Below, one piece after another: positions 1 to 44,300 of a stretch of DNA of 64,000 nucleotides. The notes under the pieces are model-generated. The model was not told the origin of the DNA and made no database searches. It saw only the letters and a list, made by a program, of their open reading frames with translations. Location of the stretch: positions 2,108,001 to 2,172,000 of the forward strand of contig OZ237735.1 in NCBI GenBank assembly GCA_965178125.1, read 5' to 3'. Made by a program: the position numbers and the translations under genes. The stretch comes from Bilabrum cf. latius. Its lineage: Eukaryota. Numbering within the stretch: the stretch's first letter is position 1; every line of letters starts with the position of its first letter.

Positions 1-1661
1 GCCAGGCCCCGGCGGTGGCTCACCCGAACATCGCTGCGCTCCTCTCCAGCACAGCTCCGCCGACATCCAGCGCTGTGCCTCGCTCCTCCAGAGCACGGCA
101 GGTTGCTTCGCCTAGCGATGCCAAGCGCAGCGTCCGCAAGCTGCCAAAGTACACCAGGGAATGCTTCGTGAGGCCGAAGATCAACGCGCATCCGGACGTG
201 CCTGCGGATTATCTGAGCGATGATCGCCTGCTGAAGGGGTCTGGAAGGCTACATCCGCAACAAATATGCACCCTCAAGCACTGGATGGCGGACAGAGATC
301 ACTGGGAGAAGCCGTACCCGACAGAGGCCGAGAAGCACGAGCTCAGTCGGAAATGCGATCTGAAGCTCACGCAGGTGTCCGACTGGTTCCGCAACGAACG
401 CAAGCGGTTGTGGCTACCGCTGATGCGCCAGCTTGGCAAGATTCCCGCCAACGGCTCCCACCTCGCGATCATGGGGTCGGCGCGGAGGAGCAAGGGGTCT
501 TCATCCTCTGGCTCCAGGTCTGGAGCTTCGAGGAAGCAGTCACGCAGCAGCGCGGCAGCCAGGCAAAAAGCGCTAGGAGCTGCTGCGTCCGAGTTTCCCA
601 CTGCGTCAATGCATAGCCAGGGCCCAAGTATGGACATGGGGCAGAGCCAGGCACTCGCGGCCGCGCCCCAGTCCAGGGTCGGCAGGACCAGGACGAGGTC
701 TGACGCAGCCTGTAAGCCCAAATTGGCCTTCACTCCAAGTAGTATCACCACGCGTACGGAGGCACTGGCCACGAAGTAGCGCAAGGCCAGGCCCAGGGCA
801 GCAAGCACAGCTGCGCTGCATGCTAGCAGCACACGGCAAGTGGGAGCCGGTGGGTTCGGCATCGCAGGCACACTGCAGCCGCAGCCGACGCTACATTGCC
901 CGGCGGCCAGTGACCCGATCATCAGTGGATCGAGCGTCCGCGCAGCGCAAGAGGCGCTGCTGATGGAGACTCCCGGCGGAAAACTTGCGGCAGGTCTGCA
1001 GCCGGGCGGCCTCTCGACTCCAACTCCCGGCGTCGCCGGGGGCACGACATCCGCCGGTGCACAGTCTTCCTCGTCGTCGTCGTCTTCCTCGTCTTCCACC
1101 ACGCCGCTGGCATCGTTCTCAAACGTTGCTGTACTCGCTGCCATGTACCCTGAGGGGCCTGCAGCGCGCTCGATGGCGGCAGCTCAGGCATCATCGAGCG
1201 GTGGCCCGGGTGCTTGGGCCGGAGGCATGCACCAATCGGCTGCCCGAAGCAGCAGCTCGACAGTGTCTGAGCCTAGGTCCAACCCGCAGCAAGACTCTGG
1301 TTCCTCGACGCCAGTTGGACGAGCTAGTACCAGCGATGACATCGGCCACGGTGGCACCTCGTCCCAGGCGGTGGGCTCTTCTGCAGGGCCTACCAGCCCC
1401 GCGGGAGACCACGACAAGAAAGGCGAATCAATCGGAACAGCAGTGGCGATGGCTCTCTCCAGCAAGCATTCTGCTGCATCGTCAAGGCGGTCATCAAGAG
1501 GATCTAAGCGGCCGAGGCCTCAAGAATTGTCCCAGGGTTCACAAGCAGGTGGTGACAAGGCTGGCACTGAGCCAAGGCGAACCAGCGTTCTGGCAGTGGA
1601 CCCGCGAGCAGGAAAGCGTTCACGAACTACATCTCTTGCTGCAACAGAGGCGGGCAACTGA
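1..1661 (+). CDS. TALE-class (KN/PYP-type) homeodomain transcription factor, 5' partial, with long Ser/Ala/Gly-rich C-terminal region; reads through TAG 777-779
   Basis: LKHWMADRDHWEKPYPTEAEKHELSRKCDLKLTQVSDWFRNERKRLW carries the TALE PYP loop and WFxNxRxR helix 3. ORFs 15-779 and 840-1661 share one frame separated only by TAG, and the frame ends at TGA 1659-1661. Confidence 0.88.
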
Positions 1662-1959
1662 GAACTAATTTGAATACTCTGCGTGTAGTAATTGATCGTG
1701 TCGCTCTTCGAGTATGAAAACAGGCAAAATGTACGAAGCAGCACACAACTGGACTGCCCAACGGAAGCATCTGATAGTCCGACGAAACTAATCGTTTCTA
1801 CACGACAGACAAGTTATCCATGCACCCAGCCATTCGAGAAGTTGCAGTTGGCACGCCACAGCGGAACCACTGCCAGTGGCCTGGTGACTGTGTCCGCGGC
1901 GCCTTTCCAGGAGTTGCCCGTTCCAACATCAGCATCATTGCTAAGCTTGCCGCACCAGG

Positions 1960-41186: not shown

Positions 41187-41323
41187 GGTCCAGTGCCAGT
41201 GCCAGTGGTGCGCTTCGGAAGTGTTGCTTCTCGTTCTCTAAACTACAACTGAATCTACTGTTACAGCTCAAGTCACATTGTCTAATTGCAAATAACGGCG
41301 AATTTCAGCCGTGGGCTGCAAGG

Positions 41324-44300
41324 TCAGTCATCGAGTGACCGGCCCCGCACCTCTGGAGTAGCAGTAGCCTCGCTGACCTCCGCCAGGGTGGAGAGGCCTG
41401 TTGCGCCAGCCGTCACGTTCCCTTTATCGTCCACCTCCTGGTCCACAAGCCCGCCAATATCCAGCGGTGACGACGCGCCGCTGCTCGCCTTCACTCCTGC
41501 GACCCCATCCGAATCCAAGCCGGCCTTGTGCCTGGACTCGAGGATGTTTGCCACGGATCCCATGGAGAACGACGGCATGCGACGAGAGGTTAGAACCGCC
41601 TGCGCGAAGCTGGTGTACCTCCTGAGGTTCCTTTCGAAAGACTCCGGCCTTCTGAGGCCAGAAGGAGACAGCGCACTCCCAGCCCCGCCCACCCTGGAGC
41701 CCCGCGGGCTGGCTGGCCGCCCGCTGGTGGACCTTGGAGGTCCCACGCTGCCGCCCTCGTCATCAGAAGGCAAGTTTCCGCCGGCCGCTGCCTGCAGTGC
41801 CATCGCTGACGATCTTCTCCGCCCCATGCCGCCTGCGACAGCAGAGGCCGCACCGTGCTGCATCAGCAGAGCGTTCACGTCCTCGCTCCCTGAAGCGGTG
41901 TCAGACGCAAAGCACAGCTTCAGGCAGCTCTGCAGCATCGATCGAGCTCGGGCCACCGTCGATCGCATCGAAGCTGCCTTCACCATGCTAGGGGCGCCCT
42001 CCCCGCCCCCGCGCACCGTCTGCGCGCACGACATCGCCACACAGAGGCTCATTGCCAGCTCCCCTGCCCGCTCCAGTGCATCGGCGCGCACGACCATCGT
42101 GCCCGGCTGCAGCTTCACGCCTTTGGCAGCCGAAAGTCCCTCAGGAAGCCACATGAAGTCGTTGCCGGGAGCGGCAAGCGCCGGGTCAGCCGGTTTCGGG
42201 AACGCCGTCGCCACAACGATCCTCCGGACCAGCCCCAGCTTCATGGACTTCCTGCCCTCGAGGTCGTCCTCAAGGGGGGCATTCTGCAGCAATGCTGCCA
42301 TGCGGCGCGCAAACCGCAGACGGACGACCTGTCTTGGATCCAGCTCGGAAATCTCCGCATCCTTGTCCGGCAGCACGACGGCAAGCGGCCCGCGGTCTCC
42401 ATGCTTTGCAGGCAGCTCGGCAGACTCCGATGACTCGTCGTCCTCCGTAGTGAAGCCCCGCGGGGCGGTCGGTGGAATGAGGAGAGCCAGTGGTCTGGTG
42501 GACGAAGTTGTGGTCGCAAGCTGCATGTCTTCAGCCTTCGATTCTCCATCCTCGGCGCCGCCGGGGGCAGTGAATCCAGCACGTCGTGGCGTCGACTGCA
42601 CCTTACGTATGAGCTGCTCAATCCTGTCCAGCCTTTCTTTGAGCGCAGCCTTGGTGCGTGAGTCCATGGCTGCAGCGGTCACAGCCTACTCGCCTCCATG
42701 CGGGCCCGCCCCGTCCACGGAGCCCGCCGCGGTTCCGTAGCTCGGGTCAGTCACGCCCAGGTTGGAATCCAGGGTAAGCTCCTCCTCCCCACCGCTCTCT
42801 CCGCTCTCCTCCTTCTCGTCGCCCTCCTCAATGGCCTCGCCTAGCCCCGTCATCTCGCCCATGCCATCCGATGCCTTGCTCTCGCTGGCGCCTGCTCCCG
42901 CTCTCGAATCGGCCGCAGCCTTCTGCTGCGACTCGCTGGCCGCGCCCACAGGCTCAGCCAAAGCATCAATATCGGTCAATGAGCCCTTCTTCTCCAGCAC
43001 ATCGGCATAGCCAGCCGAATGCTGATGAGCAGGCTAGCCGAGAAGCCCACCCATGCCTCGTCCCATGCTACCGGAAGCCTTAAGGCCCTACAGCTGCGAC
43101 CTCAACTACTCGGTCGAGGGAGCCCCCTTGGCCCCAATCGTCAGCCGGCGGCCCGGCAGGGCCGAGCCTCGCCCGAGTGCACCGGTCCGGCCGCGGAGCA
43201 GTGCAGCCCTGGTCCCTGCGCGCGGCGCCATGCTGCCCAAAGCCGCGCTGCCCCGCTTCGACATGACGCCATGCAAGGCATGCGACCTCGCCTTGAGGTC
43301 CTCCTCCTCGCGCTTGAGCCGCTCCTGGCGCTTTGCGAGATCATCCTGCATCTTTCGAGCAGCTGCCTCCCTGCGGCGCTGCGCCCGCCGCTCCAGCCGA
43401 GCACGAAGCTTCTCGTCATGTGCCCTGCGCTGCTCCTCGAACTTGGCCTCCAGTTGCTGACGCTCAGCCTCCAGCTGCTGCAGCAGCCGCTCCCGCTCCT
43501 TCTGGTCGAGATGCTGCGCTTTCTCCATTGCCTCCTTCCGGGCCGTATCTTGCTCTGCCTCCATGGCCCGGCGACGCCTCGCAAGCGCCTCTTCGGCCCT
43601 CCTCCGCTCCTCGGCCAGCTGCCTCTCGTGGTCCTCCTCGAGCTGCTTGAGGGCTCGATCGTTGTCCTCCCTAATCTTCCTCTCCAGCTCCTCCTTCTCC
43701 TTCTTGATGCTCTCGAGCCGCGTTATCTTTTCGGATTCCATCTCTTCCTCGAATCGGCGCAGCTCCTCCGCCTCCCTCGCAGCCTCCTCTGCCTCCCTGC
43801 GCCGCAGAGTCTCGTGCGGCGTCAGCTTCTGCAGGGCACCGGCAATCTCGGCGAGCTGCCGCTGCCGAAGGGTCAGCTGCTGCCTCGCGTGTTTGGCCTC
43901 CAGCTGCTCCCGCAGGCTGGTCTCCGCTTCCTCCTGCTGCGCCTTGTGCTCCGCTGTGATCTGCTGCCGACGAGCCTCCACGTCCTCCGGAGAGGCGCCC
44001 AGGGACTCTAGCTCGGAGAGTTCCTCGTCAAGCCTAAGGCGTAGCTCGCCCTCGCTGCTCTCCAGCAGCTGACGGAGCTTGCGCGTGCGGTCGGCGTACT
44101 GCTTTGACAGCAGCGTGCTGGTTTCTCTGCCGTGGCGCTGCTGCATCACGGCCTCAACGGTCTCACCACTCAGCTCTGCCATCTTGGCATCGGAAGCCAC
44201 AGCGCTCTGAGCCGAAGCCGCGCGGGAAGCTTGCGCCTTTTGCAGCGCGCGCATCTCTCGCTTGTGAGCTGCTTCTGCCTTGGCGGCATCCTCTGCCTCC

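Follow-up and report, generated by a model that had tools for sequence, protein, structure and literature searches.

A table-15-type nuclear code, with UAG predicted as glutamine and UAA kept as a minority stop, in the bicosoecid Bilabrum cf. latius

We analysed the genetic code of Bilabrum cf. latius from a window of 64,000 nucleotides (positions 2,108,001 to 2,172,000 of contig OZ237735.1, here contig 1 or C1; G000:C1:2108001-2172000) and from the assembly to which it belongs (GCA_965178125.1, here G000), a eukaryotic assembly of 48.6 Mb in 111 contigs, whose introns are of the GT-AG type. The nuclear code is very probably of the table 15 type: UAG would encode glutamine (Gln), and UAA and UGA would act as stops, with UGA at approximately 82–86% and UAA at approximately 14–18% of gene ends. 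A first-pass annotation of the window had seen UAA as either a rare stop or a nearly abandoned codon and had named plain table 15 as the competing outcome; it is the latter that the data support.

Decoding of in-frame UAG

Decoding was assessed on dynein heavy chains, at 12 loci that are the strongest of 28 AAA_6 matches (11 of them reaching the conserved C-terminus), one more end being added from the contig-1 sample. The 12 frames amount to 35,075 codons and hold 119 TAG and no TAA. When 96 aligned TAG columns were compared with 120 homologues, Gln scored +41, against −31 for Lys, −35 for Glu and −89 for Tyr, and the same test decodes all 61 standard codons correctly. At columns conserved to at least 70%, Gln was faced by 17 of 36 TAG, 34 of 75 CAA and 258 of 466 CAG codons. 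One of the two in-frame TAG codons of the eRF1 gene likewise aligns with Gln in 110 of 112 homologues. TAG makes up 14% of Gln codons and is present in 99 of the 104 models of at least 300 amino acids (aa).

TAG is not supported as a regular terminator at gene ends. It is absent from the 12 dynein, nine histone H4 and 12 histone H3 matches that end in a stop, and the last 30 codons show no shortage of it (p = 0.46). Moreover, the coding score averages 0.15 after the last TAG (one low value in 38) and 0.20 after CAA/CAG (p = 0.18 for the comparison), but −0.29 in 3′ flanks.

TAA behaves differently from TAG, as the first-pass annotation had proposed in calling the two codons decoupled: TAG lies in Gln columns, and TAA at C-termini that are conserved, with no instance within a conserved frame. 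The nine coding spans of the window (18,739 codons) contain 131 TAG, 215 CAA, 563 CAG and no TAA, in agreement with the earlier claim that no in-frame TAA occurs, although this zero is partly built in because the spans are bounded by the first TAA or TGA. For the dynein frames, table 6 usage (UAA and UAG both Gln) with TAA and TAG in the proportion of CAA to CAG predicts approximately 17 TAA where none was seen (P = 3e-8). The scan for in-frame UAA covers less than 1 Mb of the 48.6 Mb.

UAA at gene ends

In the window, TGA closes a long frame (TAG being read as sense) at all nine positions given in the first-pass annotation, four on the forward and five on the reverse strand, and the 10 gene models that touch the window all end in TGA as well. 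The gene finder used was self-trained, treated TAG as sense only and gave TAA and TGA equal priors as stops. Over 664 kb on five contigs of G000, TAA ended 20 of 140 models of at least 300 nt (14%, 95% confidence interval (CI) 9–21%); a per-locus rerun at 147 loci overlapping this set gave 36 of 203 (18%, CI 13–24%). TAA also closed two of the 15 ends anchored by Pfam, an anchored end having its match at most eight positions from the model end and at most 20 residues from the stop. For this count, 135 of 161 end segments were sent to Pfam (dynein ends, duplicates and doubtful models being dropped), and polyubiquitin was judged by its end sequence. Since TAA ends just 14–18% of models, the run of nine TGA ends can be attributed to sampling, the probability of finding no TAA among nine ends being 0.17–0.25. 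The absence of TAA ends from the window is thus a sampling effect on top of a GC bias, and UAA is an ordinary minority stop; the earlier caution about the small sample of nine ends and about GC-richness favouring TGA was well placed.

Conserved genes ending in TAA are indeed readily found. Among the 12 dynein ends, nine are TGA and three TAA, and all three TAA sit six residues past a GVAx motif, a tail shared by 54 of the 59 homologues that show GVAx (out of 120). In pattern searches, TAA ended all nine H4 copies; the 14 H3 matches comprised 11 TGA, one TAA and two TGG, and the actin ends two TGA, one TAA and one TAG, the last in a frame without Pfam match. In the TAA-ending actin, the Pfam Actin match extends to position 410 of 410. 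At this locus (L269, G000:C14:636560-636900), the gene is directly followed by a second, diverged copy of roughly its 15 final codons, which is also TAA-ended.

The eRF1 gene itself (L001; four exons, 438 aa) ends in DDDDDFI-TAA, matching the C-termini of its homologues. Two contigs, X2 and X3, join all three predicted introns of this gene exactly, with no difference over their coverage (1067-2995 and 1067-2985). They come from runs of two study codes, none on record as RNA and taken for RNA by guess, and are regarded as transcripts on the sole ground that the three introns are absent. Given this coverage without mismatch, both in-frame TAG codons and the final TAA would be present in the spliced molecule.

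TAA is nonetheless scarcer at gene ends than expected. Its share there is 14%, less than in 3′ flanks, where it makes up 30% of TAA plus TGA (p = 4e-5), and less than the 24% share of A in CAA/CAG (p = 0.006); it ends one of 36 genes in the top third by GC content at third codon positions, and two of 33 models in the contig-1 stretch. The strong TGA bias probably follows mostly from the preference for G over A in a 60% GC genome, with some additional depletion of TAA. Accordingly, of the earlier view of UAA as rare or nearly abandoned, the shortfall against the 3′-flank background stands, and the abandonment does not. An xDEL-stop pattern was rejected as evidence of TAA avoidance, since of its 19 matches, all TGA, only five are gene ends according to the gene finder, which is too few; an (I/M)EEVD-stop pattern had no match in G000.

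Affiliation of the organism and its relatives

The code had been framed earlier by comparison with ciliates. The eRF1 tree and the best matches indicate that the organism is a bicosoecid stramenopile near Cafeteria: the best named match is Cafeteria roenbergensis both for the dynein heavy chain (63%) and for the last eRF1 exon (69%), and in a 20-row eRF1 tree, a single-gene tree, the query falls in an eight-row set with Cafeteria (support 95/93). The mitochondrial genome is contig C111, of 38.4 kb; it carries a tRNA(UCA) and has TGA in frame, as has been reported for the bicosoecid Cafileria (PMC6723347).

The main tandem 18S rRNA gene, on contig C12, measures approximately 1,700 nt. A second, different 18S rRNA gene of 1,802 nt, adjoining a helicase-like frame, lies on a 17.9-kb contig (L034 and L255; G000:C95); we take it to be haptophyte-like, and it is possibly derived from prey or a contaminant.

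Related eRF1 genes were sought in metagenomes, the best 80 of 377 loci being retained. A sister sequence 92% identical to that of B. cf. latius (L158) has TAG where L001 has CAG, and ends in DFI-TGA where L001 has DFI-TAA; the TAG facing CAG indicates that the code is common to both. Another metagenome contig (L200:2-1300, protein P0254) carries two in-frame TAG facing Gln in L194 and a TGA end, and the N domain of its eRF1 is strongly altered (N61Q, R65H, L69N and S70A). By comparison, the eRF1 of L194 has canonical motifs, no TAG and a TAA end. In the tree, L200 groups with L194, P0247 and P0248 (100/100), separate from the query group (100/100), and an approximately unbiased test, on this one gene and with a group named after the first tree, rejects uniting L200 with the query group (p = 0.00036). 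On the evidence of one contig, UAG as Gln may well have been gained independently in another bicosoecid-like lineage. Two further metagenome eRF1s (L214 and L218), whose motifs are divergent, have TAA as well as TAG in frame and are consistent with table 6 organisms.

eRF1, tRNA(CUA) and GlnRS

A check for eRF1 substitutions in the TASNIKS and YxCxxxF motifs had been suggested earlier; NIKS and YxCxxxF are kept, together with GTS, E55 and S70, and the residues that differ are S60V (Ser in 108 of 112 homologues), L69Q, G29A, N30D, I35V, N129S and K130H. The eRF1 of Cafeteria is canonical at positions 29, 30, 35, 60, 69 and 129. L69Q was dismissed as the cause of UAG loss, and is not diagnostic, because Q69 is frequent in other eRF1s (21 of the 80 metagenome loci). 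Autoregulation of eRF1 through its own two UAG codons was also set aside, two being about what a TAG share of 14% gives.

A single nuclear tRNA(CUA) gene was detected (G000:C23:907607-907679; 69.8 bits) with a T-run downstream; tRNA-Gln(UUG) and two tRNA-Gln(CUG) are also present in the genome. No tRNA(UUA), a check suggested by the first-pass annotation, was present among 48 Rfam matches (63 of 780 candidates scored) or among 62 and 50 pattern matches in G000, searches that intron-containing or atypical genes would escape; a relaxed ARAGORN search with introns allowed gave noise only.

In its acceptor and anticodon stems, chosen for comparison after inspection, tRNA(CUA) agrees with the nuclear tRNA-Tyr(GUA) at 20 of 24 positions; the two differences are each compensated pairs, and the two tRNAs share C1:G72 and a G27.U43 pair. 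The other 36 tRNA rows, some of them near-duplicates and none a nuclear tRNA-His, match at 7.6 positions on average (SD 2.0), and the best of them, Gln(CUG), reaches 12. Over the whole length, tRNA(CUA) scores 50 against Tyr and 44 against the next best. Its D arm belongs to the Glu/Gln(UUG) type and its loop differs from that of Glu(CUC) by one base; the discriminator, G73, is that of Gln(UUG), where Tyr has A73. An E. coli tRNA-Tyr with A73G is reportedly an amber suppressor mischarged by GlnRS. In eukaryotes, A73 and C1:G72 define Tyr identity, and CUA suppressors attract GlnRS via U35 (PMC9976931). The simplest reading suggested by these comparisons is a Tyr-derived amber suppressor with a changed identity. 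We found no literature report on such a remolding of a UAG suppressor tRNA.

GlnRS shows no matching adaptation: its 313-residue C-terminal part has no change at columns conserved to at least 85% among 150 representatives, and co-adaptation to tRNA(CUA) was rejected for want of a derived change there. A Gly facing a human Arg is the majority state (83 of 150); this Arg is presumably the counterpart of E. coli Arg402, which contacts G36.

Other features of the tRNA set were noted in passing. The nuclear tRNA-Ile genes L011 and L246 have anticodon GAT, the usual one in eukaryotes being AAT, and position 54 of the T loop is A in several tRNAs (Ile, Val, Asn, Lys and Arg). The tRNA-like genes L025, L239, L242 and L249 belong to a near-identical, multi-copy family in which one and the same body is called Met(CAT) or Pro(TGG); in some copies the loop or the discriminator is altered. 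A tRNA-like element (L260, G000:C9:4365-4424), called Thr (GGT) with a long variable arm by ARAGORN, recurs at 13 other, mostly subtelomeric places, and L261 consists of two degenerate tRNA-like copies at C16:642044 and 642472.

Alternative readings of UAA and UAG

Several observations weigh against the assignment of UAG to Gln with UAA as a stop. The second eRF1 TAG aligns with Leu in 111 of 112 homologues (Gln being found at this site in 21 of the 80 metagenome loci). At 19 TAG sites in fast-evolving repeats, paralogues swap TAG for Ser (6), Glu (5.3), Gln (4), Lys (1.7), Leu (1) and Arg (1), a pattern dominated by Glu-rich coils and decaying repeats, which we would attribute to drift by single bases in such repeats and regard as uninformative. 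An actin-like HRKCF-TAG match (L268:372-389; G000:C33:384521-384538, reverse strand) sits in a broken frame without Pfam match. Of the 20 TAA ends in the ab initio models, nine are preceded by G and could be GTAA intron donors, so that the 14% share of TAA may be slightly high. Concerning the tRNAs, the Rfam search scored 63 of 780 candidates, no nuclear tRNA-His was recovered from G000 by Rfam or pattern searches, and the acceptor stem of tRNA(CUA) is unlike that of the Gln tRNAs of G000.

As for UAA, two opposite readings were considered, and both appear exceedingly improbable. If UAA were nearly abandoned or unassigned, with UGA in effect the sole terminator, the 10 TGA ends of the window, the low count on contig 1, the 19 xDEL-stop matches and the deficit of TAA against both backgrounds would all be accounted for; yet TAA closes eRF1, nine H4, one H3, one actin and three dyneins at conserved C-termini, as well as the per-locus and Pfam-anchored ends counted above. 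If instead the code were table 6, with UAA scarce merely through GC content, the use of TAG as Gln would be expected, UAR as Gln being the commonest nuclear variant (PMC5304391). Against this stand the dynein frames free of TAA, the failure to find a tRNA(UUA) and the position of TAA at exact C-termini, where it is swapped with TGA among paralogues and orthologues. The earlier statement that this is not table 6 usage thus holds.

Two readings concern UAG, and each is very unlikely. In the first, UAG would be Gln inside genes and a stop near their 3′ end, as in Condylostoma or Blastocrithidia. Such a dual role would fit the retention of T32 of GTS in eRF1, the HRKCF-TAG match and the in-frame TAG codons within 10 codons past predicted stops (24, versus 10 and 15 in the other frames), and could have been hidden by a gene finder barred from using TAG as a stop. 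However, none of the dynein, H4 or H3 ends is TAG, the coding signal persists past the last TAG, and TAG keeps its frequency in the last 30 codons. The HRKCF-TAG match was itself rejected as a real TAG stop, as stops lie upstream, Pfam finds nothing and a reversed control pattern also matched once; it may be a chance match, or a decayed copy in which a former TAG stop survives. In the second, UAG would be read ambiguously, mostly as Gln and partly as Tyr or Glu. The tRNA(CUA) does retain C1:G72, an element for TyrRS, and its D arm and anticodon loop are Glu-like, TAG stands opposite Glu codons in some paralogues, and one GluRS TAG occupies a position that is probably aromatic in other species. 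The dynein columns nevertheless reject Tyr and Glu in favour of Gln, the share of Glu at conserved columns is alike for TAG (4 of 36) and CAA (7 of 75), and the discriminator is G73 rather than the A73 needed by TyrRS (PMC9976931). Below, we retain the reading in which UAG has the single meaning Gln and both UAA and UGA terminate.

Features of the window

The genes of the window are collected in table 1. Pfam gave no match for the single TAG-free piece scanned of gene 4555..9973, and the aminotransferase gene is presumably serine palmitoyltransferase-like. In the branching-enzyme-like gene, one in-frame TAG separates the Alpha-amylase/CBM_48 part from Alpha-amylase_C. The two giant genes of the reverse strand appear as paralogous Cys-repeat membrane proteins with coiled-coil tails and a long near-identical block in common; gene 14325..30620 has 60 TAG, 122 CAA, 142 CAG and no TAA, and gene A has 40 TAG, 53 CAA, 245 CAG and no TAA. 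Since the retroelement-like frame contains in-frame TAG as host genes do, mobile elements appear to obey the host code. Near the window on contig 1, a 17,441-codon model with a last exon of 52 kb has its end at C1:2043464.

Table 1. Predicted genes and frames of the 64-kb window (positions within the window).
Feature	Position	Strand	TGA end	Remarks
KN-type homeobox gene, 3′ part	3..1661	+	1659-1661	PF05920, E 5.5e-14; 1 in-frame TAG
Class I/II aminotransferase gene, 2 predicted exons	2239..4282	+	4280-4282	PF00155
Predicted gene, family unassigned by Pfam	4555..9973	+	9971-9973	last exon with 10 in-frame TAG
Predicted gene similar to gene 4555..9973	10720..13722	+	13720-13722	5 in-frame TAG
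Giant Cys-repeat membrane protein gene	14325..30620	−	14325-14327	single exon, 5,431 codons
Glycogen/starch branching-enzyme-like gene	31350..34888	−	31350-31352	Pfam Alpha-amylase/CBM_48, Alpha-amylase_C
Leu-rich predicted gene	34987..36876	−	34987-34989	5 in-frame TAG; no Pfam match
Repeat-containing frame	37413..38966	−	37413-37415	tenth TGA end, absent from the first-pass list
Retroelement-like frame	39276..41114	−	39276-39278	YADD motif; 6 in-frame TAG; no Pfam match
Gene A, giant Cys-repeat/coiled-coil membrane protein	41324..64000	−	41324-41326	PF07699; 7,558 uninterrupted codons

Comparison with known codes and significance

Table-15-type codes are known from a few unrelated protists. 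What would be new here is the bicosoecid host, the dominance of UGA among stops, an intact GTS combined with S60V and L69Q, and a Tyr-like tRNA(CUA). The closest parallel is the fornicate Iotanema spirale, which has the same codon assignments, with a predicted tRNA-Gln(CUA), but in which UAA is the dominant stop and eRF1 has T32G in GTS, T32 being in contact with the G of UAG; its tRNA is described as proposed from tRNA-Gln(CUG) and not seen, whereas that of the bicosoecid was found and is Tyr-like in two stems (PMC5304391). In the same source, the rhizarian exLh also changed UAG only, but to Leu, with stops UAA 56 and UGA 15, and its eRF1 is altered at Leu69 to Ala instead of Gln (PMC5304391). 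The ciliates Hartmannula sinica, Trochilia petrani and Protocruzia tuzeti reassigned UAG only, and to Gln, as here. TAG occurs in 78–84% of genes in H. sinica and T. petrani, compared with 99 of 104 long models here; UAA ends 87–98% of genes in five phyllopharyngean genomes, a ratio that is reversed in the bicosoecid and that is said by the authors to lock UAA as a stop; and no suppressor tRNA was detected in H. sinica or T. petrani, unlike in G000 (PMC11687900).

The crAss-like phages with genetic code 15 share the assignments, but in phage genomes and with bacterial RF1/RF2 rather than eRF1 (PMC9523058). In table 6 organisms (Tetrahymena, hexamitids, ulvophytes and Amoeboaphelidium), UAG is Gln via tRNA(CUA), as here (PMC11687900); UAA is sense there, whereas the bicosoecid uses it as a stop and never in frame, and the searches recovered no tRNA(UUA). 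The amber suppressors mischarged by GlnRS that Giege and Eriani 2023 describe are laboratory bacterial mutants (PMC9976931); here, such a tRNA would serve as a natural decoder throughout the genome. Few lineages are known to have reassigned UAG alone, and no stramenopile is named in the list of PMC11687900. We likewise found no report of such a nuclear code in stramenopiles, in a search made mostly without subscription papers and supplements, and no bicosoecid nuclear reassignment in the accessible portions of PMC6723347, PMC13768787, PMC11412368 and PMC9161772.

A mechanism can be proposed from these elements. A tRNA(CUA) charged with Gln would read UAG and not UAA, because C34 cannot pair with A, while an eRF1 with S60V, L69Q, G29A, N30D and I35V would recognize UAG less well and still read UAA and UGA. 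The tRNA would have arisen from tRNA-Tyr (GUA to CUA) and switched identity through A73G, G2:C71 and a new D arm, that is, a natural alloacceptor switch without any tRNA-Gln duplicate. An AT-driven codon capture would be a poor explanation in a genome of 60% GC with UGA as the main stop. As UAA stands at just approximately 15% of ends, it would not be locked as a stop. Taken jointly, a Tyr amber suppressor switched to Gln, an unlocked UAA half-way to table 6, and at least two bicosoecid origins with different eRF1 solutions form a scenario that we consider possible but tentative.

For annotation, the consequences are direct: the standard code would truncate nearly all long genes, and table 6 would read through approximately one in six stops. 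For the evolution of codes, the tRNA and eRF1 are visible together in one assembly, with the canonical-motif eRF1 of Cafeteria as a standard-looking comparison. How eRF1 drops UAG yet keeps UAA and UGA with GTS intact, and whether UAR-to-Gln codes arise in two steps, thereby become testable. If the proposed scenario is true, this bicosoecid would represent a living half-way stage toward table 6.

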